DNA from: Casimicrobiaceae bacterium
Lineage (GTDB): Bacteria > Pseudomonadota > Gammaproteobacteria > Burkholderiales > Casimicrobiaceae
DNA length: 64,000 bases
Assembly (NCBI GenBank): GCA_035536295.1
Contig: DATLOI010000127.1
Span: 26,493 to 90,492, forward strand
Direction of reading: 5' to 3'
Shown here in pieces: positions 12,001 to 36,842 of this stretch (its first letter is position 1; each line of letters begins with the position of its first letter). Under the pieces are notes generated by a model. The model was not told where the DNA came from, made no database searches, and worked only from the letters and a program-made list of their open reading frames with translations. The translations under genes and the position numbers were made by a program.

Positions 12001-14421
12001 CTACCGCGGTGGCTCGACATGCGGCGTGACATTCACGAGGGCGTCGTTGAGCTCGACGGCACAGCGTGCATTCAAGATCGCAGCGTCATCCAACGCGTCG
12101 CCGCGCGCATAGCCCATCGCGATCGCGCGTCCGAGCTTGCGGCTGTAGCCTGCGGACGTGATTTCCCCGACGGGTTTTCCATTCATGTGGATCGGCTCGC
12201 CTCCCCAGGGAAACGCAGCACGATCATCAAAAGTGAAATGCACGAGGCGCTTACGCAAAAACGCATGTGCCTGCGCGAGTAGAGCATCGCGGCCGGTGAA
12301 CGCTACGGCCTTGTCGAGCTTCACGGCGAAGCTTAAGCCTGCTTCGAACGGCGTCTCGTCGGGCGAGAGCTCCGCGCCCCAGGCGCGCCGGCCAGCTTCG
12401 ATGCGCAACGCGTCGATCGTGTAATAGCCGGCATCCTGCAATCCGAATCGGGCGCCCGCGTCCTGCAGGGCTTCATATAGCGTGATGCATTGCTCGACGG
12501 GGACGTACAGCTCGAATCCCGGCCCCCCGACGTAGCTCATGCGTGCCGCACGAACGCGTGCGTAGCCCACGTCGACTTCGCGTGCAGTGGAGAACGGAAT
12601 CGAGGCCCGCGAGAAATCATCGCGCGACAAGAGCGCGAGAAGGGCTTCCGCGTGCGGTCCCATCAGTGACAGCACGCACCACGCGCCCGTCACGTCGACC
12701 AGCGCGGCGTGCTCGTTGTCCTCGATATGCCGCTCGATCCAGGAAAAGTCGCGCGTCGCTTGTCCGGAACCGGTGACGATGAAATACTCGTTGCGCGCAA
12801 CGCGCAGCACCGTGAGATCGCTCTCGATGCCGCCGCGACGGTTCAGCATCGCCGTGTACACGATGCGGCCGATGACAACGTCGATGTCGTTCGCACACAA
12901 TCGCTGCAGAACCGCGGTGGCATCACGGCCTTTGAGAACGAATTTTGCAAACGAGGTTTGATCGAAGACGACGACGTTTTCTCGACACGCGCGCTGCTCT
13001 TCCAGCATGTAGGGCAGCCAACCGGGCGCGAGCAACGTGGGTGCGGGCTCGTGCTCGCCATCGGGCAGGAAATAATTCGCACGCTCCCAATTGAGCTTGG
13101 TGCCGAATACCGCGCCGTTCGCTTTCAATCGATCGTAGAGCGGCGAGCGGCGCAACGGGCGCACGGTGACGAGCTCCTCGCGCGGCCAGCGCATCGCGTA
13201 GTGCAATCCGAGCGTCTCGACGGTGCGATCGGCGAGATGTTTCGCGTTCGCATGGAATCCCGCGAAGCGGCGGATGTCGACATCCCAAAGGTCGACCGGC
13301 GGCTCACCATCGACGATCCATTGCGCGACGAGTTGTCCTGCGCCTCCCGAGTTCGCTATGCCGGCCGAGTTGAAGCCCGCGCAAACGAAGAATCCGCGCA
13401 CGTTCGGAGCTTCGCCCAAGAGGAAGTTGCCGTCGAGCGTGAAGCTTTCGGGACCGTTCAACAGCATTTTCACCGGCGCCGTTTCGAGACAGGGCGTGCG
13501 GTGAATCGCATTGTTCATCAGCACTTCGAACTGGTCCCAATCCTCCGGTAGCAACTGGAATTCAAACTTGGTCGGGATCGGATCGACGCTCCAGGGCTTC
13601 GCGGTTGGCTCGAAACCGCCCATGACAAGGCCGCCGACCTCCTCCTTGTAATAAATGAAGCCGTCGGGATCACGAATGACCGGAAGGTCGGGGGTCACGC
13701 CTTCGATGCGCTCGGTGACGAGATAAAAGTGCTCGGCAGACCAGAGCGGAACCGTGACGCCGGCGAGACGTCCGAGCGCACGCGCCCATTGACCGGCGCA
13801 ATTAACGATCGTTTCGCAAACAATTTCACCGCTTGCCTCGCCGTCATTCCAAGCAACACCACGCACGCGGCCGCGGTCGATGTCCACACGTGTCACCTCG
13901 ACGCCTTCGATGATCGTGGCGCCTCGCGTTCGCGCACCTTTGGCGAGCGACATCGCAAGGTCGGTCGGATTCGCTTTGCCGTCGCCGGGAATCCACACAG
14001 CGCCCGCAAGATCGTCGGTGCGAAGTATCGACGCAATGCGCTTCGCTTCGGAAGCGCTCACGAACTCGAACTCGACGCCGAAGCTTTTCGCACGCGCCAT
14101 CTGTCGTTGCATCAGCATCAGTCGCTCGGGCGTTTTCGCGACGTTGAGTGAACCGCATTGCTTCCAGCCGGTGGCAAGACCGGTCTCGCGCTCGAGCGAG
14201 GCGTAAAGCTCGATGCCATAGCGGCTCATGCGCGTTGCGTTACGCGTTGCACGCGTCTGGCCGACGAGGCCCGCCGCGTGCCACGTCGTGCCGCAGGTAA
14301 GACGGCCTTGTTCGAGCAGCACGACATCTTTTACGCCGAGCTTCGTCAGGTGATATGCAGTCGAGCAGCCGGCGATGCCGCCGCCGACGATGACAACGCG
14401 GGCGTGCGTGGGCACATTCAT
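12001..14421 (-). CDS. FAD-dependent oxidoreductase with C-terminal GcvT-type folate-binding domain (dimethylglycine/sarcosine dehydrogenase family), paralogue 1
   Basis: ATG 14421 gives MNVPTHARVVIVGGGIAGCSTAYHL (dinucleotide fold). TWHAAGLVG covalent-FAD-type motif. About 400 aa of aminomethyltransferase-like C-terminus. Substrate unknown. Confidence 0.85.
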   Translation of the reverse strand: MNVPTHARVVIVGGGIAGCSTAYHLTKLGVKDVVLLEQGRLTCGTTWHAAGLVGQTRATRNATRMSRYGIELYASLERETGLATGWKQCGSLNVAKTPERLMLMQRQMARAKSFGVEFEFVSASEAKRIASILRTDDLAGAVWIPGDGKANPTDLAMSLAKGARTRGATIIEGVEVTRVDIDRGRVRGVAWNDGEASGEIVCETIVNCAGQWARALGRLAGVTVPLWSAEHFYLVTERIEGVTPDLPVIRDPDGFIYYKEEVGGLVMGGFEPTAKPWSVDPIPTKFEFQLLPEDWDQFEVLMNNAIHRTPCLETAPVKMLLNGPESFTLDGNFLLGEAPNVRGFFVCAGFNSAGIANSGGAGQLVAQWIVDGEPPVDLWDVDIRRFAGFHANAKHLADRTVETLGLHYAMRWPREELVTVRPLRRSPLYDRLKANGAVFGTKLNWERANYFLPDGEHEPAPTLLAPGWLPYMLEEQRACRENVVVFDQTSFAKFVLKGRDATAVLQRLCANDIDVVIGRIVYTAMLNRRGGIESDLTVLRVARNEYFIVTGSGQATRDFSWIERHIEDNEHAALVDVTGAWCVLSLMGPHAEALLALLSRDDFSRASIPFSTAREVDVGYARVRAARMSYVGGPGFELYVPVEQCITLYEALQDAGARFGLQDAGYYTIDALRIEAGRRAWGAELSPDETPFEAGLSFAVKLDKAVAFTGRDALLAQAHAFLRKRLVHFTFDDRAAFPWGGEPIHMNGKPVGEITSAGYSRKLGRAIAMGYARGDALDDAAILNARCAVELNDALVNVTPHVEPPR

Positions 14422-14434
14422 CGCGAATCTCCCG

Positions 14435-15286
14435 TCAAAATCGTAGCGCGGCGACACCCACCGCCACGCCGATTGCGCCGGCAATGCGTCTCCATCCGAA
14501 GCTTTCCTTCAGAAACAAAGCACCCATCAACGCCGCAAACACGACCGACACTTCGCGCAGTGCAGCGACGACCGCAACCGGCGCGCGCGTCATTGCCCAC
14601 AACGCAATGGCATAGGCGCCAAAGCTGGCAGCGCCTGCAAGGAATGCGCGGCGCCTGCGCAGCCAGAAATAGTCGACCGCGGGGCGACCGCGTTGCCAAA
14701 CAATCCATGTCAGATACGGCACGCCGTCGAGGCACGTCAACCACACCGCGTACGACCATGCGCTGCCGGCGATACGCGCACCGGCGCCATCGATCAGCGT
14801 GTAGATCGCGATGATCGCGGCGTTTGCGAGCGCGTACAGCGCAGCCGCGACGGTGTGACGTCCGCTCGCGAACCACGCAATGGTCAGGATGCCGGCCGAA
14901 ATGAGAATGATGCCGCCCAGCATCGGCGCGCTGAGGCGTTCGTGCAGGAACACGACTCCGAGCAGCGTCACGATCAGTGGCGCCACGCCTCGCATCAACG
15001 GATAGGCGAACGAAAGGTCGCCGCGGCGATACGCCGCGCCAAGCAGAAGGTAGTAGACGAAGTGAACGGCCATCGATGCAAACACGAACGGCCACGCTTC
15101 GCGTGATGGCGGGGAAACGAACAGCAACAGCGGAACGCACAAAAACGTCGTGCCGGCGACAACCAGCGCTGTATCGAGCACCGGATCGCCGGCGGCCGAT
15201 TTCAAAAGCGCGTTCCAGAGCGCATGCAGAAAGCCCGCGCCCAGAACGGCAAGCGTCACCGCAAGCGAGATGTCGGGCGCCGGCAA
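14435..15286 (-). CDS. EamA/DMT-family transporter
   Basis: 283 aa, about 10 hydrophobic segments, EamA-like N-terminus (LAVLGAGFLHALWNALLK). 13 nt upstream of the DMGDH-like gene. Confidence 0.75.
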   Translation of the reverse strand: MPAPDISLAVTLAVLGAGFLHALWNALLKSAAGDPVLDTALVVAGTTFLCVPLLLFVSPPSREAWPFVFASMAVHFVYYLLLGAAYRRGDLSFAYPLMRGVAPLIVTLLGVVFLHERLSAPMLGGIILISAGILTIAWFASGRHTVAAALYALANAAIIAIYTLIDGAGARIAGSAWSYAVWLTCLDGVPYLTWIVWQRGRPAVDYFWLRRRRAFLAGAASFGAYAIALWAMTRAPVAVVAALREVSVVFAALMGALFLKESFGWRRIAGAIGVAVGVAALRF

Positions 15287-15400
15287 CGTTAGTTGGGAAG
15301 TGGCCGGAAGAGCGCGGCGCCCGCAACAGTCTCGTTTTTTCGTGCCGTTGCCGGCGACCGCCGCCGGGCCGCCCCAAGGCGAGGCGCGAAAATTCGTTCC

Positions 15401-15462
15401 GATGCAAAAGGCGCAACGCCGAAGTTACACTTCACTCTGAACCCTCGGACGCCTTTTGCATC
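15401..15462 (-). terminator. Candidate terminator/long hairpin after the Na/Pi transporter gene
   Basis: Perfect 13-bp inverted repeat GATGCAAAAGGCG (15401-15413) / CGCCTTTTGCATC (15450-15462) with a 36-nt spacer. Starts 6 nt after the stop at 15469-15471. A short U-run (AAUUUUCG) follows on the minus-strand transcript. Confidence 0.4.
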
Positions 15463-15468
15463 GGCTAA

Positions 15469-17187
15469 TCAAACGCCGCGCGGCGCGCTGTTCAATTCGT
15501 CGCTCTTCGGCTCGTCGCCGTCGGCGAGCGCTGCCACGGTCTCGGCAGTCGGCGTCATCAAGCGTGTTCGCGCGAGCACACCTGCATCCTCGAGAATCGG
15601 ATAAGCGACCGAGCAGAAGTGCGAATTGATGCGACGCATGTCGGAGATGAGATCGAGATGCAGCGACGAGGTCTCGATGCTTTCGATCGTGTTACCGGCA
15701 AGGCGGGCGAGATGCGAGTTGGCGTAGGCGCGCTCCAAATCGCGAACGATGACTTTCTGCGCGAGCAATTCCTGCGCGCTCTTCTGATCGCCGTGCAGGA
15801 AAACGCTCGTGGCTAGGCGCAGGTTGCAAACCAGGCGACCATGCAGATCCGTGATTTCGAGCATTCCCGCGTCCGAAAAGCTGTGGCCCTTGTCGATCTT
15901 GCGATCCTCGATGTCGGCGAGAATGCGCTCGATGATGTCGCCGACCTGCTCGAGATTGATCGTGAACGATACGATGTCGGTCCAGCGGCGGCTTTCGCGC
16001 TCGTCGAGCGCGCCGCGGGGAACCTGCGTCAAATAGAGCTTGACCGCCGTGTAGAGCTCGTCCACGACGTCGTCCTTTTTGCGCAGCCGCTCGGCCTTGT
16101 CGCGATCGTTGGTTTGCAGCACGACCAGCATCCCGCGCAACATTTCGTCGATGACATCGGCGATGCGCAAGGTCTCGCGCGCGGCATTGCCGATCGCCAG
16201 AGCGGGCGTTTCGAGCGCCGAAGGATCGAGATGACGCGGCTTCTCGGCGCCTTCGGAAGGAGGCGGCGAGGGCATCAGTCGCTCGGTGAACTTTGCGATG
16301 CGCTCGGTCAGCCCGACGAACACGATCGCGAGCACCGTGTTGAACGCCAAGTGAAACAACACGACTTCATGCGCGGCTGAAACGTTCACGCGATCGATGA
16401 CTGTGCTCGCATAGCTCACGAGCGGCATTGCAAGCACGACGCCGATCAACTTGAATAGAAAGTTGCCGAGCGTGACGCGCCGCGCCTCGATCTCGGAATG
16501 CAGCGTCGACAGCACGGCGAGAAGACCGCTGCCGAGATTCGCGCCCAGCACGATGCCGAGCGCGACTTCGGGGCCGACGAGCGAGAGTGATGCGAACGTC
16601 GCGACGAGCAGCACCACCGCAAGGCTCGAGTACACGACAACGGTGATCAAAGCACCTGCGAGCACGTCGAGCATCACGTCGCCCGTGAGCGATGCGAACA
16701 GCACCTTGACACCCGCGGTGTCGACAACGGGATGCGCGGCGGTGCGAATCCACTGCAATGCGAACAGGATGAGTCCGAGGCCGATCAGGATGCGACCCAG
16801 CCGGCCCGACGTCGATGCCTGCTTGCGCAGGAACAACGTGACGCCGACGACGATCAGAATCGGCGCCAGGAAGTCGAGATCGAACGACAGCACCAGCGTG
16901 ACGATCGACGTGCCGACGTCGGCGCCGAGCATCACCGCAAGTGCAGGGGCTGTCGCGATCAATCCCTGTCCCGCGAATGCGGCAACGATCAAAGCGGTCG
17001 CGGTGCTGCTTTGCAGCAGAGCGGTCACCGAAAGTCCTGCACCGAAGGCACGCCAGCGACTGCTCGTGCTGTGACGCAGCAGACGTCGCAAAACGCTTCC
17101 GTATTGGCGCAGGATGCCGGTGCGGACGAAGTGCGTTCCCCATACGAGCAACGCAACACCAGCCAAAAGATCGAGCAGTATTTTCAC
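15469..17187 (-). CDS. Na/Pi-cotransporter family protein with C-terminal PhoU-like domain (YjbB type)
   Basis: GTG at 17187 (GTGA overlap with the upstream stop) gives VKILLDLLAGVALLVWGTHFVRTGILRQYG, the typical N-terminus of this family. Duplicated NaPi_cotrn repeats followed by a soluble helical domain. Confidence 0.85.
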   Translation of the reverse strand: MKILLDLLAGVALLVWGTHFVRTGILRQYGSVLRRLLRHSTSSRWRAFGAGLSVTALLQSSTATALIVAAFAGQGLIATAPALAVMLGADVGTSIVTLVLSFDLDFLAPILIVVGVTLFLRKQASTSGRLGRILIGLGLILFALQWIRTAAHPVVDTAGVKVLFASLTGDVMLDVLAGALITVVVYSSLAVVLLVATFASLSLVGPEVALGIVLGANLGSGLLAVLSTLHSEIEARRVTLGNFLFKLIGVVLAMPLVSYASTVIDRVNVSAAHEVVLFHLAFNTVLAIVFVGLTERIAKFTERLMPSPPPSEGAEKPRHLDPSALETPALAIGNAARETLRIADVIDEMLRGMLVVLQTNDRDKAERLRKKDDVVDELYTAVKLYLTQVPRGALDERESRRWTDIVSFTINLEQVGDIIERILADIEDRKIDKGHSFSDAGMLEITDLHGRLVCNLRLATSVFLHGDQKSAQELLAQKVIVRDLERAYANSHLARLAGNTIESIETSSLHLDLISDMRRINSHFCSVAYPILEDAGVLARTRLMTPTAETVAALADGDEPKSDELNSAPRGV

Positions 17188-18551
17188 GCGCTTGCAGCGG
17201 TCAGTGCCGCATCGAGAATGTCCAGCGCGCGATCGAGATCGTCTTGCGCGATGACGAGTGGTGGTGAAAGCACCAGCACGTTGCCCTGGCCGATCTTGAA
17301 CGAAAGCCCGTTGGCGAGGCATTCGTACATCACCTGCTCGGCCTGGTCGCGCGCCGGCGTGCCGTCGCGATGGCGGAGCTCGATGCCCAACAGCAGCCCG
17401 ATCCCGCGCACGTCGGCAACGAGCGCGTGCCGCGAACGCATGTCCAGTAGACGACACTGCGCGTACTCGCCCAGATGCTGCGATCGCTCGCAAAGCCGCT
17501 CGTCGGCGATGACGTCCAGCGTCGCCAGTGCCGCTGCACAGCCAACCGAGCTCTTCTCGTGTGTGTAGTGCCCCAACGCCATCGTGCGCGCCACGTCGAG
17601 CTCGCGACGTGCGATCAACGCCGCCATCGGCATCACCGCACCGCCCAGCCCCTTGCCGAGCACGACGATGTCGGGCGCGACGTCGTAGTGCTGGAATGCA
17701 AACATTGTGCCGGTGCGTCCAAGCGCGATCGGAACCTCGTCGAGGATCAGCAAAGTACCGTGGCGATCGCAGGCGTCGCGCAACTTTTGGTAATACGCAG
17801 CTGGCGGAACCTGAACATCGGTCGAGCGAATCGTCTCGATGATGACCGCGGCGACATCTTCCTCCTTGTCGAGCATGTACGCGATGTACTCGGCGCAGCG
17901 CGCGTTGCACGTTCCATTGCAGCCGAAGCGGCAATCGCGCGGATCACAGGGCGGCGCGTGCTCGGCGCCGGCCAATAACGGACCGATGCCGCGCCGGAAC
18001 ATCGCTTCACCGCCAATCGATATCGCATCCAGCGACGCACCGTGAAAGCTATCCCACAACGAGATCGTCTTGTGACGACCAGTCACGGCGCGCGCGAGCT
18101 TCAGCGCCATTCCGATCGCAAGCGCGCCGCTTGGCGCGAACAGCACTTTGCCCAACGGATCCGGCGCGAGCGCAACCAGACGCTCGGCAAGCTCGACAGC
18201 ATGTGAATTGGTGAAACGGCGCGGTGAGAATGGAAGCGTGTCGAGCGCGTCTTTGACCGCCGCGATCACGCGCGGATGTCGATAGCCGACCTGGTGCACG
18301 CTGTTGCCGTGAAAGTCCATGATGCGACGACCGTCACGGTCGGTGAGCCAGATGCCTTCGCTCTCGACTAATGAATCGAAGCATGGCGTGGACAGCGATT
18401 GATGCAAGAACACCGCGCTGTCGCGCTCGAGCCACGCCCGCGTCGCCTCACCGACGTGCGTCGCCTCGTAACGTTGACGGCGCGGGGAAAGATTGACGTC
18501 GCCTTCGAAGGCGAGCTCGCCGATCGACAACGGTGGAGGAGGCGCGTTCAT
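17184..18551 (-). CDS. Class-III (fold type I) PLP enzyme, aminotransferase-like. Candidate (R)-1-hydroxy-2-aminoethylphosphonate ammonia-lyase (PbfA-like) or aminophosphonate transaminase
   Basis: 455 aa. LILDEVPIALGRTGTMFAFQHYDVAPDIVVLGKGLGG region with the PLP-lysine context typical of class-III aminotransferases. Sits inside the phnA-phnY operon. The specific function is contextual inference only. Confidence 0.8.
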   Translation of the reverse strand: MNAPPPPLSIGELAFEGDVNLSPRRQRYEATHVGEATRAWLERDSAVFLHQSLSTPCFDSLVESEGIWLTDRDGRRIMDFHGNSVHQVGYRHPRVIAAVKDALDTLPFSPRRFTNSHAVELAERLVALAPDPLGKVLFAPSGALAIGMALKLARAVTGRHKTISLWDSFHGASLDAISIGGEAMFRRGIGPLLAGAEHAPPCDPRDCRFGCNGTCNARCAEYIAYMLDKEEDVAAVIIETIRSTDVQVPPAAYYQKLRDACDRHGTLLILDEVPIALGRTGTMFAFQHYDVAPDIVVLGKGLGGAVMPMAALIARRELDVARTMALGHYTHEKSSVGCAAALATLDVIADERLCERSQHLGEYAQCRLLDMRSRHALVADVRGIGLLLGIELRHRDGTPARDQAEQVMYECLANGLSFKIGQGNVLVLSPPLVIAQDDLDRALDILDAALTAASA

Positions 18552-18552
18552 C

Positions 18553-22006
<3,454 letters not shown>

Positions 22007-22246: not shown

Positions 22247-23275
22247 ATGAACCTTGCACGTCGTATTTCACTGGTGGCAATCACTGCCGCCGCGTTGTTC
22301 CATGTTGCGCCGCTCGCCGCGCAAAAAACCCAGCTCATCGTCTATACAGCGGTCGAAACCGATCAGCTCAAGGCGTACGAGGAAGGCTTCTACAAAGCAG
22401 TCCCCGATGTCGAGCTCAAATGGGTCCGCGATTCAACCGGTGTCATCACCGCAAAGCTGATCGCCGAGAAAGCCAATCCGCAGGCCGATGTCATATGGGG
22501 TCTTGCCGCAACGAGTCTTCTGGTCCTCGACAACGAAGGCATGTTGCAGCCCTACGCGCCCGCGGGACTCGCTGCGCTGGGGCCGCAATACAAGGACACG
22601 AAGAACCCGCCGAATTGGTGGGGAATGGACGTGTGGGGCGCGACGGTTTGCTTCAACACCGTCGAGGCGGCCAAGCAGAATCTGCCCAAGCCCGAGACCT
22701 GGCAGGACTTAACCAAGCCGGTCTACAAAGGCAAGATCGTGATGCCGAACCCGGCGTCGTCGGGAACCGGCTTTCTCGATGTGACGGCATGGCTGCAAAT
22801 CATGGGCGAGCAGAACGGCTGGCAGTTCATGGATCGATTGCACGACAACATCGCGCAATACACGCATTCGGGCAGCAAGCCGTGCGTGCAAGCAGGCAAC
22901 GGCGAGTTTCCGATCGGCATCTCGTTCGAGTATCGCGCCAACACGATCAAGGCCAAGGGCGGTCCGATCGATCTGATCTTTCCCAAGGAAGGACTCGGCT
23001 GGGACATGGAAGCATTCGGCATCATGAAGAATACGAAGAAGCTCGATGCCGCGAAGAAGCTCGCCGACTGGGCGTCGAGCAGGCCCGCGATGGAGCTCTA
23101 CGCGAAGAATTACGCGATCGTCGCGTTACCGGGGGTTGCGCAACCGCTGCCGAACGTTCCCGCCGACTACGAGAAGCGCCTGGTCAAGAATGACTTCGCC
23201 TGGGCCGCGAAGAATCGCGATCGCATTCTTGCCGAGTGGTCGAAGCGCTACGACGCCAAATCGGAGAAGAAGTAG
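22247..23275 (+). CDS. ABC transporter periplasmic binding protein, Fe(III)/2-aminoethylphosphonate type (PhnS2-like)
   Basis: AAGGAGGAG Shine-Dalgarno, signal peptide, FbpA/PhnS-like fold sequence. Divergent from the phnA/phnY operon. AEP specificity is inferred from context. Confidence 0.8.
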   Translation: MNLARRISLVAITAAALFHVAPLAAQKTQLIVYTAVETDQLKAYEEGFYKAVPDVELKWVRDSTGVITAKLIAEKANPQADVIWGLAATSLLVLDNEGMLQPYAPAGLAALGPQYKDTKNPPNWWGMDVWGATVCFNTVEAAKQNLPKPETWQDLTKPVYKGKIVMPNPASSGTGFLDVTAWLQIMGEQNGWQFMDRLHDNIAQYTHSGSKPCVQAGNGEFPIGISFEYRANTIKAKGGPIDLIFPKEGLGWDMEAFGIMKNTKKLDAAKKLADWASSRPAMELYAKNYAIVALPGVAQPLPNVPADYEKRLVKNDFAWAAKNRDRILAEWSKRYDAKSEKK

Positions 23276-23370
23276 GCGTAAGCGCGATTTTCGGTAGCAG
23301 CCATGCACGCGAGCGAGGGATTGCTCGATGAGCGATCTCTCGCAGCGGTGTGCATGCAACAGGAGGCCCC

Positions 23371-24444
23371 GTGAGCGTTGAACCGAGCTACCTCGAGCTG
23401 CGGGGCATTCACAAGAGCTTCGGCAAGTTCGTCGCCCTCGAGGACATTTCGCTCGACGTCCGGCGGGGCGAGCTCATGGTGTTTCTCGGACCGTCGGGTT
23501 GCGGCAAGACCACGCTGCTGCGCATCGTTGCGGGGCTGGAGCAACAAGATCGCGGTGCCATCATCCAAGACGGCACGGACATCACGCGTTTGCCCGCGAT
23601 CCGACGCGACTACGGGATCGTTTTTCAATCGTATGCGCTGTTTCCGAACCTCACTGTTGCGGACAACGTTGCGTATGGGCTTGTCAATCGGCGGCAGAAA
23701 CGGGCGGCGATCAATGCGCGCGTCGATGAGCTGTTGACGTTGGTTGGCCTGCCCGAATCGAAAACGAAGTATCCGGGCCAGCTTTCCGGCGGGCAACAGC
23801 AGCGTATCGCGGTTGCGCGTGCGCTTGCATCCTCACCCGGATTGCTGTTGCTCGACGAGCCGCTGTCTGCGCTCGATGCGCTGGAGCGCGTGCGCTTGCG
23901 TGGTGAGCTTCGCGCGCTGCAACAGCGACTCGCGGTGACCACGATCATGGTCACGCACGATCAGGAGGAAGCGCTTTCGATTGCAGATCGGATCGTCGTG
24001 ATGCATTCGGGACGAGTCGAGCAGGTGGGAACACCGCGCGCAATTTATGGAACGCCGGCGACCTCGTTCGTCGCCGACTTCGTCGGCAAGATCAACGTAT
24101 TGCCTGCCGTTGCCGAAGGGCGCGGCAGCTTTCGTGTCGGCAGCGTGGCGCTTCAGACCGAATGCGTCGACATTGTTGCAGGGACGCCGGTCAAGCTGTA
24201 TCTGCGACCCGAAGAAATCGCCGTGAACGCGAACGGCGCGTCGAGCATCAACACGCTGACAGCGAAGGTCGGCAAGATCGAATTCCTCGGAGCGTCGTGC
24301 ATGGTTGCGATCGCGCTCGATGCGGGCGACGCGCCACCATTGGTCGCAAACGTGTCGCGTCAGATTGTCGATGCAAAGCAGCTAGCAACCGGGCAATCGC
24401 TCACCGTGAGCCTGCCGCCGCAGGCGTTGCGCGTTCTCGGGTAG
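23371..24444 (+). CDS. ABC transporter ATP-binding protein (PhnT2-like, with C-terminal TOBE-type domain)
   Basis: GTG 23371 is preceded by AGGAGG (23361-23366). Walker A GPSGCGKTT, signature LSGGQQQR, Walker B LLLLDEP. Confidence 0.9.
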   Translation: MSVEPSYLELRGIHKSFGKFVALEDISLDVRRGELMVFLGPSGCGKTTLLRIVAGLEQQDRGAIIQDGTDITRLPAIRRDYGIVFQSYALFPNLTVADNVAYGLVNRRQKRAAINARVDELLTLVGLPESKTKYPGQLSGGQQQRIAVARALASSPGLLLLDEPLSALDALERVRLRGELRALQQRLAVTTIMVTHDQEEALSIADRIVVMHSGRVEQVGTPRAIYGTPATSFVADFVGKINVLPAVAEGRGSFRVGSVALQTECVDIVAGTPVKLYLRPEEIAVNANGASSINTLTAKVGKIEFLGASCMVAIALDAGDAPPLVANVSRQIVDAKQLATGQSLTVSLPPQALRVLG

Positions 24445-24450
24445 TCGCGG

Positions 24451-26175
24451 TTGATGGCTACCCGCGCGGCGACGTTACCTCGCATTCCCGCGCCCGCCGT
24501 CAAGCCGCGCGTGCACTGGCACGATCGGCTTGCGCAAGGATTGCTTCTATTGTGCTGCCTCGGGCTCGTCGCATTTCTGCTCGCACCGCTCGCGACGATT
24601 CTGATCAAGAGCGTGCAGGACAATTCGGGCGCGTTCGTCGGGCTCGCGCAGTTCCGCGACTATTTCGCGACCCCCGCACTGCGAAGCTCGATCTGGAACA
24701 CGTTGTGGGTTGCATTGGCCGTGACCGCGATCACGGTTCCGCTGGCATTCATGTACGCATACGCGCTGACGCGTTCGTGCATGCCCGGCAAGATCTTCTT
24801 TCGGGTGATCGCACTGACGCCGATCCTCGCGCCATCGTTGATGGCGGCAATCTCGTTCATCCAATGGTTCGGCAACCAGGGAGCGCTGAAGTGGCTATTG
24901 GGCGGCGCGTCGGTGTATGGCCCGCTCGGCATCATCCTGAGCTCCGTTTACGCAACGTTTCCCCACGCACTGATGATCATTCTCACGGCGCTGTTGCTGG
25001 CGGACGGCCGGCTCTACGAGGCGGCGGAGTCGCTGCGCACGCCGCGTTGGCGCAAGTTCCTGACGATCACGTTGCCAGGCGCGCAATACGGTCTGGTCAG
25101 CGCGACGATGGTCGTGTTCTCGTACACGGTGAGCGATTTCGGGATTCCGAAAGTGATCGGCGGCAACTTCAACGTGCTCGCCGTCGATATTTTCAAGCAG
25201 GTGATCGGCCAGCAGAACTTCAACAAGGGTGCGGTCGTCGGATTGGTGCTACTCGTGCCCGTGCTGCTCGCGTTCATTATCGATTGGATCATGCAGGGGC
25301 GCATAGTGGCGCAGTTCTCTGCCCGCGCGGTTCCCTACGCGCCGCGGCCATCGCGCTGGTTCGATCGCGCAATGCTCGTCTTTTGCGTCATCGTCGCGCT
25401 ACTGTTGATCGCGGTGTTGGGAATGGCGATCTACACGTCGTTCATCAAGTTCTGGCCGTACGACAAGTCGATGAGCCTGCGCCACTATTCGTTCGGCCTG
25501 GTCGACGCCGGCGTCATCGTCTCGTTTTTCAATAGCCTCAAGATGGCAGTGATGAGCGCGGTGTTCGGGACGATGTTCATCTTCGGCGTTGCGTATCTGC
25601 TCGAGAAAACGCGAGGCATGCCGACGACCAAGGCGGCGGTGCGACTCCTGGCCGCAGTTCCGATGGCAGTGCCTGGAATGGTGCTGGGCCTCGGCTACAT
25701 TCTGTTTTTCAACGACCCGGCCAATCCGCTGAACGCCCTTTACGGCACGATGACGATCCTCGTCGTGTCGACGGTCGTTCACTACTACACGTCGAGCCAC
25801 CTGACCGCTGTGACGGCGTTGAAAGCGCTCGACAACGAGTTCGAGGCGGTTTCCGCGTCGCTCAAGGTTCCGTTCTACAAGACGTTCTTCCGCGTCACCG
25901 TGCCGGTGTCGCTGCCGGCGATCCTCGACATAGGACGCTATTTGTTCGTCAACGCGATGGTCACGATTTCGGCCGTTGTTTTCCTCTACGCTCCGGGAAC
26001 GCAGCTCGCTTCGATCGCGATTCTCAACATGGACGAAGCGGGCGAGATCGGACCAGCGGCGGCGATGGCGACCTTGATCGTTGCGACATCGACGGTGATC
26101 TGCCTGGTCTATGCGGTGATCACACGCTTCATCGTGACGAGGACGCAGCGCTGGCGCGCGGCGGCGGTGATGTAG
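24451..26175 (+). CDS. Fused two-domain ABC transporter permease (PhnU2/FbpB-like)
   Basis: 574 aa, about 12 TM segments, two BPD-transporter permease repeats. Start is TTG 24451 or ATG 24454. Confidence 0.9.
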   Translation: MMATRAATLPRIPAPAVKPRVHWHDRLAQGLLLLCCLGLVAFLLAPLATILIKSVQDNSGAFVGLAQFRDYFATPALRSSIWNTLWVALAVTAITVPLAFMYAYALTRSCMPGKIFFRVIALTPILAPSLMAAISFIQWFGNQGALKWLLGGASVYGPLGIILSSVYATFPHALMIILTALLLADGRLYEAAESLRTPRWRKFLTITLPGAQYGLVSATMVVFSYTVSDFGIPKVIGGNFNVLAVDIFKQVIGQQNFNKGAVVGLVLLVPVLLAFIIDWIMQGRIVAQFSARAVPYAPRPSRWFDRAMLVFCVIVALLLIAVLGMAIYTSFIKFWPYDKSMSLRHYSFGLVDAGVIVSFFNSLKMAVMSAVFGTMFIFGVAYLLEKTRGMPTTKAAVRLLAAVPMAVPGMVLGLGYILFFNDPANPLNALYGTMTILVVSTVVHYYTSSHLTAVTALKALDNEFEAVSASLKVPFYKTFFRVTVPVSLPAILDIGRYLFVNAMVTISAVVFLYAPGTQLASIAILNMDEAGEIGPAAAMATLIVATSTVICLVYAVITRFIVTRTQRWRAAAVM

Positions 26176-31841: not shown

Positions 31842-33122
31842 TCAAGCGACGCGTGTCAGCGGCGCATTCACAGCGCCCGCGCCACCCGGGCCCATTTCGC
31901 GCAAATACCAGCGAATGAACGCGTCGACGTTGTATTCCTTGCCCTTCGACAATGGACCGGGAACGTAACCGATCGAGTCCACGCCCTTCTGCTGCCATTT
32001 GCAGATATCCCAGTCCTGCGCGTTGGTGAGATCCCAGAACGGCAACAGTTTGTCCAGCGAATAGTCGTCGCCTTCGCGCGCTTGGTCATCGACGAGCCAA
32101 TAGCTTCGCAGCTTGGTCTTGCGCGGGCCCGCAGGCAGCAGGCGTGAGGCGACGGCGTGATCGCAGCTTCCGTGCACCCAGAAGTTCGGCAAGCTGCGCA
32201 GTCGCAGCGTCCCGACATCGGCATCCTGGTAGTCGCCCATCAGCGGCGCGACACGCGCACCATCGATCGACTCCGTATCCCAGTCATCGACCAGAACCGT
32301 GCGATCTGCCGCGTACCAGACGCCGCGCTCGGGATCAGGGAAGGGCGCGAGACCGCCGCGCTGGTGGGTGATGGCAATGCCCTGCGCCGCCCACTTCGAT
32401 TGCGTGCGCTCGATCGCCGTGGCCATTTTTGCGCGCGACGATTCGGTGGCGGACGCTTCGTCGTAAACGTCGAAGTTCGCTTTGACGTATTGCGGATGGT
32501 TGCGAACGCAATGGAAGCATTCGCGGTTATTTTCCCATACGAGCTTCCAGTTCGCTTCGACGTCGTGGTCGATGATCTTGGCGATTTTCGCGCGATCGAA
32601 GCCTTGCGGACGCGCAGCGCCTTCGAATGCTTCACGCAGCGGAGCGAATGCGGGTGGCGAGTCGGCGAGCGAAACATAGATGAGTCCTGCGACGGTTTCG
32701 ACCCGCACCGGAAGTAACCCGAGCTTCGACTTGTCGACGTCTTCATGCATGCCGTGGCAGGAGACGAGCTCGCCTTGGCGCGAGTACGTCCAGCTGTGAT
32801 ACGGACAAATGATCGCGCGAACGTGCCCGGTTTCCGAACGGCACAGCATCGTGCCGCGATGCCGGCACACATTGTAAAACGCGCGAACGCGACCGGCATC
32901 ATCGCGCATGACCAATACCGACGTTGCCTCCACGGCGAGTGTAAGAAAGTCGCCTGCATTGGGAATCTCGATTTCGAAGCCGGCGAAAAGCCACCCGCCG
33001 TACCAGACACGCTCGAGCTCGCGCGCATACAACGCATCGGTGTGATAGAACGCGCGCGGCATTCCGTAGCCGTCGCGGCGCGTGGCGAGGAGCGTGTCCA
33101 GCTCATCGTTTTGCGTGAACAT
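31842..33122 (-). CDS. Rieske [2Fe-2S] non-haem iron oxygenase alpha subunit (GbcA/CntA/stachydrine-demethylase-like)
   Basis: Rieske motif CRH-x17-CPYH (CRHRGTMLCRSETGHVRAIICPYHSWTY). Mononuclear iron motif E-x2-H-x4-H (NNRECFHCVRNHP). No reductase partner in the window. Confidence 0.9.
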   Translation of the reverse strand: MFTQNDELDTLLATRRDGYGMPRAFYHTDALYARELERVWYGGWLFAGFEIEIPNAGDFLTLAVEATSVLVMRDDAGRVRAFYNVCRHRGTMLCRSETGHVRAIICPYHSWTYSRQGELVSCHGMHEDVDKSKLGLLPVRVETVAGLIYVSLADSPPAFAPLREAFEGAARPQGFDRAKIAKIIDHDVEANWKLVWENNRECFHCVRNHPQYVKANFDVYDEASATESSRAKMATAIERTQSKWAAQGIAITHQRGGLAPFPDPERGVWYAADRTVLVDDWDTESIDGARVAPLMGDYQDADVGTLRLRSLPNFWVHGSCDHAVASRLLPAGPRKTKLRSYWLVDDQAREGDDYSLDKLLPFWDLTNAQDWDICKWQQKGVDSIGYVPGPLSKGKEYNVDAFIRWYLREMGPGGAGAVNAPLTRVA

Positions 33123-33147: not shown

Positions 33148-35565
33148 TCAAGCAGCGAGAAGCCGCTTGCGCTCGGGATCGTACAGCGGACGCGTGTGTC
33201 GCACGGCGGGGAAGCGCTCGCCCATCACTTCGACTGCGTAGTCGGCGCGTGCGGGCTCATCCGCCTCGACGTAAGCGCAAAAGATAGTGCGGCCCACCGT
33301 GTAACCGTAGCCCGCGCTCGTGACGCGACCGATCACGCGCCCGCCTGCAAGCACGATTTCGCCGCCGAACATATCGATATCCGCTGATGCAGTGAACCAC
33401 AGGAGCTTGCGTTTGGGTCCCGTCGCTTTGATTTCGACGAGCGAGCGTTGCGCAAGAAAATCACCCTTGTCGGCCGCGACGCAGAACCCCAGGCCCGCTT
33501 CGTAGGGATTGTAGTCGGGCGTGATGTCCGAGCCCCACGCGAGATATTGCTTTTCGAGCCGCAGGCTGTTGATCGCGCGGTAACCCGCATTGACGATGCC
33601 GAATCGCTCGCCGGCTTGCATCAGGCTTTCGTACAAGCCGAGCGCGTATTCGACGGGCACATGAAGCTCGTATCCCAGCTCGCCGACATAGGAAACCCGC
33701 AGGGCGAGCACGGGCGCATAAGCCAGGTCGATCTCGCGCGCGCTCATGTAGGGAAAGCTCGCGTTGTCGAGTGGCGCATCGGTCAATTGTGCCAGCACTT
33801 CGCGTGAGCGCGGTCCGCAAACGTTCAACACCGCGCGCGACGACGTGTGGTCGACGATTCCCACACTTCCATCGTCGGGCAGATGGCGTTCAATCGTCGA
33901 GCGGTCGCGTACGCCGAGTGCGCTGCCCGTAACGAAATAGAACCGATCGGGCGCAAGCCTCGTCACGGTCACGTCGGCTTCGATGCCGCCACGCACGTTG
34001 CAAAGTTGCGTGTACACGATTGTGCCCACCGGTCGATCGACATTGTTGACCGCGAGCATTTGCAAGAGCGCCAGGGCACCCGGACCTCGCACCTCGTACT
34101 TCGAGAACGAGCTCATGTCGATCAGCGCGACACGCTCGCGAATCGCGCGATGCTCGTCACCGATCGCTGCGAACGCGGGACCGCGAGTGAACGCAGGCGA
34201 TTCGACGGCACTCGTGCCCGCTGGCGCGAACCAGTTCGGACGTTCCCAGCCAAACTTCGTGCCGAACACCGCCCCTGCTTGCTGTAGCGTCGTATGCAGC
34301 GGGCTGCGCCGTGTATCACGCCCGACAGCGGGCTCGTAGTTCGGCCACGCGATGTGGTAGTAACGGCCATAACTCTCGACCGCGCGCTCATACATGAAGC
34401 GCTTGACCGCGTGCACTGCGCCGAAGCGCCGCACATCGAACGGCCACAAGTCCAGTCCAGGATCGCCATCGACGATCCAGTTCGCCATGACCCAGCCCGC
34501 GCCTCCCGACGCTGCGATGCCCGACGTGAATCCGCAGCACAGATAGAAATTGTCGAGCTCCGGCGAGGGTCCAATGATGGGTTCGCCGTCCGCGGTGATC
34601 GGAATCGGTCCGTTGATCATCTGGCGAATGCCGACTTCGTTCAACACCGGAATGCGTGCGGACGCCGCTTCGGCGAGCGGTGCAAATCGATCGAACTCGG
34701 GCGCCAATAACTCGGGACCGAAGTCGGCACGTATCCCTGATGCGCCCCAAGGAATCGTGTTCGCTTCCCAGCCGCCAACCGCGAGCGCGCCCGGCTCGGG
34801 CTTGACATAGAAGCTGCCGTCCGGATCGCGCAGCGTGGGCAAGTTGTCTGGAATGCGCGATGACTTTTCGGTCACGAAATATTGATGCTCGACTGCGCAA
34901 GCCGCGATGCGCGTGCCGACCATCGCAGCAATGTCGCGCCCCCACATGCCGGCTGCATTGATCACGCATTCGACGTCGATCGATCCTTGATCGGTGGTCA
35001 CGCGCGTCACGCGACGACCACGCTTTTCAAGCGCCGTGACAAGAACATTCTGGATGATGCGAACCCCGCCCGCCCGCGCGCCGGCGACGTACGCGTGCGT
35101 CAGACTCGCCGGGTCGACGTAACCATCGCCTTCGACCCATGCGGCGCCAACGACACCATCGATGTCGATCAGCGGAAAGCGCTCCTGGGCCTCACGCGCC
35201 GAAATGAGGTCGACGTGAAAGCCGAATCCCTTGGCCATCGTCGCCGATCGCTTGAATTCCTGCCAGCGCGAACGCGATGACGCGATACGCAAGCTTCCGG
35301 CACGATGCCATCCGGTGGCCTGTCCCGTTTCTGCTTCGAGCTTGTCGTAGAGCTCGGCGGAGTAGCGCATGAGGCGCGTCAAATTGCTGCTGCTGCGCAA
35401 CTGCCCGACAAGACCCGCTGCGTGCCAGGTCGCGCCATGCGTCAATTGCAGCCGCTCGAGCAGCACGACGTCGCGTGCGCCGCGCTTGGCGAGGTGATAG
35501 GCGATGCTCGAGCCAATGCAGCCGCCGCCGATGATCACGATGCGGGCTTGGGTGGGGACGGACAT
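33148..35565 (-). CDS. FAD-dependent oxidoreductase with GcvT-type folate-binding domain (dimethylglycine/sarcosine dehydrogenase family), paralogue 2
   Basis: ATG 35565 gives MSVPTQARIVIIGGGCIGSSIAYHL. TWHAAGLVG motif. Collinear with, and clearly paralogous to, 12001..14421 over the full length. Confidence 0.85.
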   Translation of the reverse strand: MSVPTQARIVIIGGGCIGSSIAYHLAKRGARDVVLLERLQLTHGATWHAAGLVGQLRSSSNLTRLMRYSAELYDKLEAETGQATGWHRAGSLRIASSRSRWQEFKRSATMAKGFGFHVDLISAREAQERFPLIDIDGVVGAAWVEGDGYVDPASLTHAYVAGARAGGVRIIQNVLVTALEKRGRRVTRVTTDQGSIDVECVINAAGMWGRDIAAMVGTRIAACAVEHQYFVTEKSSRIPDNLPTLRDPDGSFYVKPEPGALAVGGWEANTIPWGASGIRADFGPELLAPEFDRFAPLAEAASARIPVLNEVGIRQMINGPIPITADGEPIIGPSPELDNFYLCCGFTSGIAASGGAGWVMANWIVDGDPGLDLWPFDVRRFGAVHAVKRFMYERAVESYGRYYHIAWPNYEPAVGRDTRRSPLHTTLQQAGAVFGTKFGWERPNWFAPAGTSAVESPAFTRGPAFAAIGDEHRAIRERVALIDMSSFSKYEVRGPGALALLQMLAVNNVDRPVGTIVYTQLCNVRGGIEADVTVTRLAPDRFYFVTGSALGVRDRSTIERHLPDDGSVGIVDHTSSRAVLNVCGPRSREVLAQLTDAPLDNASFPYMSAREIDLAYAPVLALRVSYVGELGYELHVPVEYALGLYESLMQAGERFGIVNAGYRAINSLRLEKQYLAWGSDITPDYNPYEAGLGFCVAADKGDFLAQRSLVEIKATGPKRKLLWFTASADIDMFGGEIVLAGGRVIGRVTSAGYGYTVGRTIFCAYVEADEPARADYAVEVMGERFPAVRHTRPLYDPERKRLLAA

Positions 35566-35693
35566 CGGTCGCCAAAGCAAAGATGACGGGCGAATCTATC
35601 ACGGCATCGCGCGATGGCGAATCGCGTTAAGATGAATGCCACAGCGGCGCGCGAAAACACCGCCACGAGCCCGACTTTCAAACGAGGTAGCAC

Positions 35694-36842
35694 ATGAGTC
35701 TCGTCTCCCGCGATCCGATCCTGTTGACGCCCGGTCCCTTGACAACCTCGCTCGCGACCAAGAGCGCGATGCTCCGTGACTGGGGCTCGTGGGACGCGAG
35801 CTTCAACGCCGTGACCGCGCAGATTCGCGGCAAGGTCCTCGACATCGTTAATGCGCAAAACAGCCATGTCTGCGTTCCGATGCAGGGAAGCGGCACGTTC
35901 TCGGTGGAAGCAGCGGTCAACACGCTAGTGCCGCGCGACGGTCACGTGCTAGTCCTGATCAACGGCGCGTACGGGCAGCGCATGGCGAAGTTGACGGCGA
36001 TGATGGGACGGCGTGTCAGCACGTTCGTCACTGCGGAAGACGTGCCGACTACAGCCGCCGACGTCGACCGGCTGCTCGCCGCCGACGCGTCGATCACGCA
36101 CGTGGGACTGATTCACTGCGAGACGTCCACCGGAATCGCGAATCCGCTTGTGCCGATCGCCGAGGTGGTTGCGCGACATCGCCGTCGCTTGATCATCGAT
36201 GCAATGAGCTCGTTCGGCGCCATGCCGATCGATTCGCGCAATGTCGCTTTCGATGCCGTCGTGGCGGCGTCAGGCAAATGCATCGAAGGGCCGCCAGGTA
36301 TGGGGTTCGTCATTGCCAAACGCGACGCGCTCGAAGGCGCGGCCGGCAACTGCAGCTCGCTCGCGCTCGATCTGCACGATCAATGGATCTACATGGAGAA
36401 GACGACGCAATGGCGCTATACGCCGCCGACGCATGTCGTCGTCGCTTTCAATGCCGCGCTCGATCAGTTCATGGCCGAAGGTGGACAACCGGCGCGGCTT
36501 GCCCGCTACACGAAGAATTGCGAGACGCTGCTCGCGGGAATGCGTGCGATGGGTTTTCGCTCGTTTCTCGATGCCTCGATCCAGGCGCCGATCATCGTGA
36601 CCTTCCACGCGCCGGCCGACTCGCGCTACGACTTCAAGACGTTCTACGCGAACGTGCGCGATCGCGGCTTCATCTTGTATCCGGGAAAACTCACGCAACT
36701 CGAGACATTTCGCGTGGGTTGCATCGGTGCGATCGGTGCGGAAGAAATGCGCCAGGCGGTGCACGCGATCGGCGATGCGCTGCGTGATATGGGGATTCGC
36801 GAAATTGCGCCGGCGGCCCCGGCGGCAATCCGCGCGGCGTGA
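35694..36842 (+). CDS. phnW: 2-aminoethylphosphonate:pyruvate aminotransferase
   Basis: Full-length resemblance to characterised PhnW as I recall it ([31 protein letters not shown] lysine context [25 protein letters not shown]). Confidence 0.9.

Follow-up and report, generated by a model that had tools for sequence, protein, structure and literature searches.

Described PbfA systems and the Casimicrobiaceae locus

A single PbfA, an (R)-1-hydroxy-2-aminoethylphosphonate (R-HAEP) ammonia-lyase from the Vibrio clade, has reportedly been characterised. Here we compare with it a class-III aminotransferase-like gene found in a 64,000-nt stretch of DNA from a Casimicrobiaceae bacterium (GenBank assembly GCA_035536295.1, contig DATLOI010000127.1, positions 26,493 to 90,492; the whole stretch is called the window below). 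The gene is a 455-aa open reading frame (ORF) with an ATG start, read on the minus strand at 17184–18551, and is the fourth cistron of a five-gene operon in the order phnR-phnA-phnY-pbfA-transporter. Publications already describe the PbfA family, the reaction it catalyses and its occurrence in phnWAY-type clusters (PMC8154272, PMC12366243), and the window gene is an ordinary copy.

The Vibrio enzyme (2021, PMC8154272; family model NF049939) and the window protein have in common the class-III pyridoxal phosphate (PLP) fold, an Ala at the position of R141 in E. coli GabT, the absence of GabT E211 and R398, a Lys at the position of the “flipping arginine” and the motif HYTHEK. Both are encoded in operons with phosphonoacetaldehyde-consuming enzymes, in genomes from which PhnZ is absent, and both pass the family cut-off. 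Identity is about 50%, as measured on a Vibrio stand-in introduced below, and the partner enzymes are PhnY and PhnA here and PhnX there. Unlike the Vibrio operon, that in the window has no phnW, its PbfA candidate carries a Cys loop at residues 207–219, and a translationally coupled gene for an Na/Pi-PhoU transporter comes next.

The order phnA-phnY-pbfA recurs in alphaproteobacterial phnW-phnA-phnY-pbfA clusters, which are described in PMC8154272 (Roseovarius nubinhibens) and in PMC12366243 (Mesorhizobium, Shinella, Roseovarius and others). It is also found on Leisingera thetidis plasmid pBMJM1_3, whose protein shares 54% identity with the window protein and scores 660.7 bits on NF049939. The alphaproteobacterial operons begin with phnW, and PbfF, PbfC or PbfD is also encoded in many of them, whereas in the window a GntR regulator stands at the head, phnW is distant and no PbfF-type gene is clustered (near the operon there is no strong PF02826 gene of the kind that a PbfF-type racemase would require). 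The window thus extends the published gamma- and alphaproteobacterial clusters with a betaproteobacterial case, phnR-phnA-phnY-pbfA.

Family assignment and diagnostic residues

We predict, with a probability of roughly 0.9, that the class-III gene encodes PbfA, because its product passes NF049939, its residues read as PbfA and its position in the tree is inside the PbfA clade. An earlier sequence-only reading of this DNA had hesitated between PbfA and a new aminophosphonate transaminase; model, residues and tree favour the first, and the second found no support in the sequence. Its further proposal, a broader range of substrates for the PhnY/PhnA pathway through this gene, gains support with the gene acting as PbfA.

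The protein matches Aminotran_3 in Pfam (PF00202, 276.5 bits) and the PbfA equivalog model NF049939 (NCBIfam) at 671.9 bits, over model positions 2–440 of 442. Scores on this model are bimodal across 31 related genomes, with orthologues at 649–688 bits and all other class-III paralogues below 300. Ten of these genomes, the source genome among them, have one match in the upper range; each of eight further class-III paralogues in the source genome stays under 300 bits, and none of 14 control genomes exceeds the cut-off. An AlphaFold2 model from a 50-sequence family alignment (mean predicted local distance difference test score 90.9, predicted template-modelling score 0.91) resembles class-III structures at template-modelling (TM) scores of 0.83–0.87 and ~30% identity, with racemases, dialkylglycine decarboxylase and GABA transaminases among the matches. 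A search of a copy of the PDB found no PbfA structure, the best matches being ~32% identical.

According to the legend of Fig. S1 in PMC8154272, PbfA retains the PLP-binding residues and is without E211, R398 and R141 of E. coli GabT. The same legend gives the R141 position as always Ala in PbfA and describes a conserved Lys that takes the place of the “flipping arginine” of pyruvate-type enzymes. We took the same reference, E. coli GabT (NP_417148.1), mapped positions through it, and examined residues in an 80-sequence alignment with 54 PbfA-type rows. The window protein has A172 at R141, S243 at E211, V427 at R398 and K419 at the flipping-Arg position. Its catalytic Lys is K300 and the Asp facing the PLP pyridine is D271; these two, F169 (which stacks on the PLP ring) and the phosphate-binding G142 and T330 are conserved class-III PLP residues. 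The family signature is present as F169, A172, R242, H328-Y-T-H-E-K333 and K419. No variation occurs among the 54 PbfA-type rows at F169, A172, R242, H328, T330, H331, K333 and K419, and the Y329 column holds either Tyr or Phe; among these rows are the Vibrio phnW-pbfA-phnX gene, a Cytobacillus protein called PbfA by NCBI and UniRef, and the Leisingera phnW-phnA-phnY-pbfA gene. The scoring of PbfA-specific active-site residues suggested in the sequence-only reading therefore came out as PbfA at every position aligned with GabT.

Could the gene instead encode a housekeeping transaminase for GABA, beta-alanine or putrescine and sit in the operon by chance? Automatic annotations do name close relatives “4-aminobutyrate aminotransferase”. 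However, the dual-substrate recognition residues of such transaminases, which the sequence-only reading had singled out as their mark, are absent, and two paralogues elsewhere in the same genome (L092 and L094) carry the full GabT R/E/R triad and can serve that role. Translational coupling on both sides and a phn context conserved across phyla also argue against chance placement, and the probability we would give to this explanation is negligible. By their residues, L092 and L094 are likely true GABA-type transaminases. The own-genome paralogues are without the signature set, its elements recurring only singly (K419, H328 or Y329 in L093, L094 and L090). GabT itself (PDB 1SF2) has the same fold (TM 0.85) and the conserved catalytic Lys and PLP-binding Asp, at 27% identity in the structural and 32% in the sequence alignment; in contrast to GabT, the window protein has Ala, Ser and Val for R141, E211 and R398, and the reaction expected of it is elimination rather than transamination. 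A GABA-type transaminase identity is effectively refuted by this residue pattern.

A different possibility is a true aminotransferase for 2-aminoethylphosphonate (AEP), aminomethylphosphonate or 3-aminopropylphosphonate, which would make a phosphono-aldehyde for PhnY and so replace the distant PhnW. In favour of this, the protein has the fold and the PLP-binding residues of a class-III aminotransferase, PhnW is encoded outside the operon, and the Lys in place of the flipping Arg might in theory bind a carboxylate or phosphonate. Yet all signature residues are common to the Vibrio orthologue, the three GabT residues are missing and the curated model NF049939 is that of PbfA, so the chance of such an activity appears very small.

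The class-III aminotransferase subgroup includes, as stated in PMC8154272, one other documented 1,2-eliminating lyase, ethanolamine-phosphate phospho-lyase (ETNPPL; PDB 6TOR). This identity was considered and rejected. At just 163 bits, 6TOR ranks around 28th among the matches, behind racemases and GABA transaminases. The residue aligned with GabT R141 is His in ETNPPL and Ala in the window protein, and ETNPPL has phosphate as its leaving group, whereas a hydroxyl is expected here.

Public sources label close relatives of the PbfA candidate “4-aminobutyrate aminotransferase” or “aspartate aminotransferase family protein”, and the window gene should be named pbfA. The curated model would supply this name automatically, and the significance of the assignment goes little beyond correct annotation.

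Phylogenetic position and a cysteine-rich loop

A quick maximum-likelihood tree (IQ-TREE, LG+C20, some long branches flagged) places the window protein in a 63-row clade with the Vibrio, Cytobacillus and Leisingera genes (Shimodaira–Hasegawa-like approximate likelihood ratio test 100, stem length 0.73). The clade excludes GabT, the paralogues from the source genome and other class-III representatives. Within it the window protein has a short branch (0.33) in a subclade made up of Burkholderiales only.

Eight sequences inside the PbfA clade (P0148, P0151, P0152, P0154, P0162, P0168, P0158 and P0187) have lost the signature residues; for instance, the Ala at the GabT R141 position is back to Arg or Ser. 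These lineages are probably neofunctionalised offshoots, with long branches and an uncertain placement.

The Vibrio orthologue in these comparisons is the phnW-pbfA-phnX gene of Vibrio alfacsensis, a member of the harveyi group. Its product and the window protein align over 437 residues with 2 gaps at 50% identity, and the Vibrio product scores 736.9 bits on NF049939, beside 653.3 bits for an Ensifer protein and the Leisingera score given above. The residue numbering in PMC8154272 (F171, A174, D288, K317) does not fit the V. alfacsensis protein, and none of the 272 retrieved proteins fits this numbering of V. splendidus PbfA. A homologue search with the Vibrio orthologue returned V. parahaemolyticus, V. 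vulnificus and V. harveyi sequences, all 98% identical, and the ten 50%-identity cluster representatives that were looked up bore only Cytobacillus names. The nearest 80 relatives in genome contigs include no Vibrio; the Vibrio orthologues came from the plasmid collection.

A loop at residues 200–222 of the window protein contains five Cys (C202, C207, C211, C215 and C219; residues 202–219, window positions 17890–17949), the last four forming a C-x3-C-x3-C-x3-C core. Among 90 diverse PbfA loci, 68 encode the four-Cys core, and it is kept by every one of the 120 closest relatives. Cys is missing from all five positions at 11 of those 90 loci, the Vibrio phnW-pbfA-phnX orthologue included. The loop also occurs in members with a phnWX context from many phyla and does not follow one gene context.

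Several observations weigh against the assignment to PbfA. The V. alfacsensis protein is a stand-in for the characterised V. splendidus enzyme (WP_004730150.1), and no assay was found for the window protein or for any Burkholderiales PbfA, the function being carried over at ~50% identity. The Cys loop is present here and missing from the Vibrio orthologue, and the two enzymes are not structurally alike throughout. The residue past the phosphate-binding Gly is Ala here (G142-A143) and Thr in V. splendidus, at a position that varies (A/S/T/G/C) across the family. Finally, the loss of the signature in nested lineages means that clade membership alone is no guarantee of function.

Such differences might be read as altered specificity, with a PbfA-family enzyme performing the same elimination on another beta-hydroxy aminophosphonate, such as S-HAEP, N-methylated HAEP or a longer-chain analogue. 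The Burkholderiales sequences do form their own subclade and have the Cys-rich loop that the Vibrio orthologue is without. No PbfF-type racemase is clustered near the operon. The DMGDH-like and Rieske genes of the window give a hint that this organism also deals with methylated aminophosphonates, and an altered substrate could match the methylamine-type flavoenzymes encoded nearby. However, all residues invariant in the PbfA clade are kept, the end branch is short, the NF049939 cut-off is exceeded by ~147 bits, and the Cys loop is not tied to one context, being found in phnWX members of many phyla. PLP chemistry, moreover, requires a primary amine, which rules out fully N-methylated substrates, a point made in PMC8154272. 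We see a small chance of altered specificity and retain R-HAEP as the predicted substrate.

The near all-or-none distribution of the cysteines suggests a single unit, which may be a metal site, an iron-sulfur cluster or a set of disulfides. Because the Vibrio sequences are without it, the loop is probably dispensable for catalysis. It is possible, though unlikely, that the loop binds a metal ion or iron-sulfur cluster or forms a redox-sensitive disulfide pair. If so, this common form would have a structural or regulatory cofactor so far undescribed for PbfA. A query of the PDB with the Cys motif gave three displayed alignments, none of which contains the motif, and a literature search returned nothing relevant that explains the four-cysteine loop of PbfA.

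Operon structure and the phn region

Translational coupling holds at each of the four junctions in the five-gene operon. On the minus strand the TGA stop of phnY (18555–18553) is followed by a single base (18552) and then by the ATG of the class-III gene (18551–18549). At the other end, the plus-strand letters tcac at 17184–17187 read GTGA on the minus strand, so that the TGA stop of the class-III gene (17186–17184) overlaps the GTG start of the transporter gene (17187–17185). Upstream, phnR and phnA overlap as TTGA (21242–21239) and phnA and phnY as ATGA (20013–20010). Both pbfA junctions had been described in exactly this form by the sequence-only reading, and its view of the gene as an integral operon member is borne out by them. 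It had also named the neighbours correctly: the phnY profile (TIGR03250) and the transporter domains (PF02690, PF01895) agree with phnY on one side and a phosphate transporter on the other, and PhnW, put there at 17 kb, lies 17.1 kb off by its NF010006 match. The G+C content at third codon positions of the PbfA-candidate ORF (0.76) is typical for coding genes of this window, which is 62.6% G+C.

Directly past the transporter stop, at ~15400–15460 on the minus strand, is an inverted repeat with perfectly matching 12-bp arms (GATGCAAAAGGC ... GCCTTTTGCATC) separated by ~38 nt. This long hairpin 3' of the transporter gene is likely the end of the operon transcript. Scanned for promoters and terminators, the operon showed sites no more numerous than in shuffled sequence, with a terminator-like site near its end; the scan found no internal terminator and was otherwise uninformative. 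The features of the region are collected in Table 1.

Table 1 Features of the phn region in the window, with the evidence for each.
Feature	Coordinates	Strand	Evidence
Probable pbfA	17184..18551	-	NF049939 671.9 bits (cut-off 525); signature residues; clade; AlphaFold2 model
phnY, phosphonoacetaldehyde dehydrogenase, predicted to use the PbfA product	18553..20013	-	TIGR03250 851.2 bits (cut-off 635.65); ATG start overlaps phnA stop
phnA, phosphonoacetate hydrolase, C-P bond-cleaving step	20010..21242	-	TIGR02335 606.9 bits (cut-off 407.55); TTG start overlaps phnR stop
phnR, GntR-family phosphonate-utilisation regulator, first cistron	21239..22006	-	TIGR03338 291.4 bits (cut-off 271.5); ATG at 22006
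Na/Pi-cotransporter and PhoU-domain membrane protein, last cistron	15469..17187	-	PF02690, PF01895; TIGR00704 256 bits; GTG start
phnS2-phnT2-phnU2, AEP-type ABC importer, divergent	22247..26175	+	TIGR03261 530, TIGR03265 498, TIGR03262 797.5 bits; all above cut-offs
phnW, 2-aminoethylphosphonate--pyruvate transaminase, canonical AEP entry step	35694..36842	+	NF010006 572 bits; TIGR02326 508.5 bits
DMGDH-like flavoenzyme	12001..14484	-	DAO + FAO_M + GcvT; 827 aa
DMGDH-like flavoenzyme	33148..35580	-	DAO + FAO_M + GcvT; 810 aa
Rieske oxygenase	31842..33122	-	

The two DMGDH-like flavoenzyme genes and the Rieske oxygenase gene flank the phn genes. On the Leisingera plasmid with the order phnW-phnA-phnY-pbfA (locus L098), sarcosine-oxidase-like and Rieske genes likewise lie just upstream.

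Proposed pathway

The chemistry, substrate and products proposed here are carried over from the characterised V. splendidus enzyme. R-HAEP, a natural phosphonate, would form an external aldimine with PLP, displacing K300; abstraction of the proton at the amino carbon and elimination of the neighbouring hydroxyl would follow, and the released enamine would hydrolyse to ammonia and phosphonoacetaldehyde. PhnY would then oxidise phosphonoacetaldehyde to phosphonoacetate, whose C-P bond PhnA would cleave to give acetate and phosphate. In this scheme PbfA would act as a tributary, through which R-HAEP joins the pathway that PhnW supplies with AEP. The PhnS2T2U2 importer is the probable uptake route for both AEP and HAEP, bringing in the substrates.

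Profile searches of the source genome, which is 93% complete, gave the match in the window as the sole one above cut-off for PhnW, none above cut-off for PhnX, the C-P lyase protein PhnJ or PEP mutase, and none at all for the PhnZ model TIGR03276. With no PhnX, PhnZ or C-P lyase, PhnY and PhnA are the sole sink for phosphonoacetaldehyde. The gene content, including the lack of PEP mutase, indicates that the organism consumes phosphonates and does not make them. The locus should be regarded as a system for mineralising AEP and R-HAEP together, belonging to an uncultured Casimicrobiaceae-like (Burkholderiales-type) bacterium.

Context of pbfA in other genomes

In the survey of PMC8154272, pbfA is counted in 17 of 75 phnWAY clusters and is never together with phnZ. 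We screened the 8-kb neighbourhoods of the nearest 80 loci in genome contigs (L008–L087), which represent many phyla. PhnW is encoded within that distance at 34 of the 80 loci, PhnX at 27 and PhnA together with PhnY at 10. In other Burkholderiales pbfA is paired with phnW-phnX rather than with phnA-phnY. One relative (L008, 73% identity) shares the full layout of the window, phnU2T2S2 followed by phnR-phnA-phnY-pbfA-NaPi-EamA-DMGDH.

Not every member of the PbfA family is clustered with the pathway. A gene on Ensifer canadensis plasmid pT173d (L089:8968-10329; 653 bits) encodes all signature residues and stands alone next to a divergently oriented LysR gene, the 9 kb around it being free of phn genes.

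Two longer proteins encoded outside the window combine a PbfA-type domain with a second enzyme. P0147 (619 aa) joins the C-terminal two-thirds of PhnX (TIGR01422 positions 89–250) to a PbfA-like domain that scores 463 bits, short of the cut-off; either a PhnX-PbfA fusion or an N-terminally truncated gene call could account for it. P0123 (790 aa) has an N-terminal domain like those of D-2-hydroxyacid dehydrogenases and PGDH (~38–338) and a full PbfA domain (356–779; 635.8 bits, above the cut-off). It resembles a PbfF-type HAEP racemase fused to the lyase, a Rosetta-stone link between two published enzymes.

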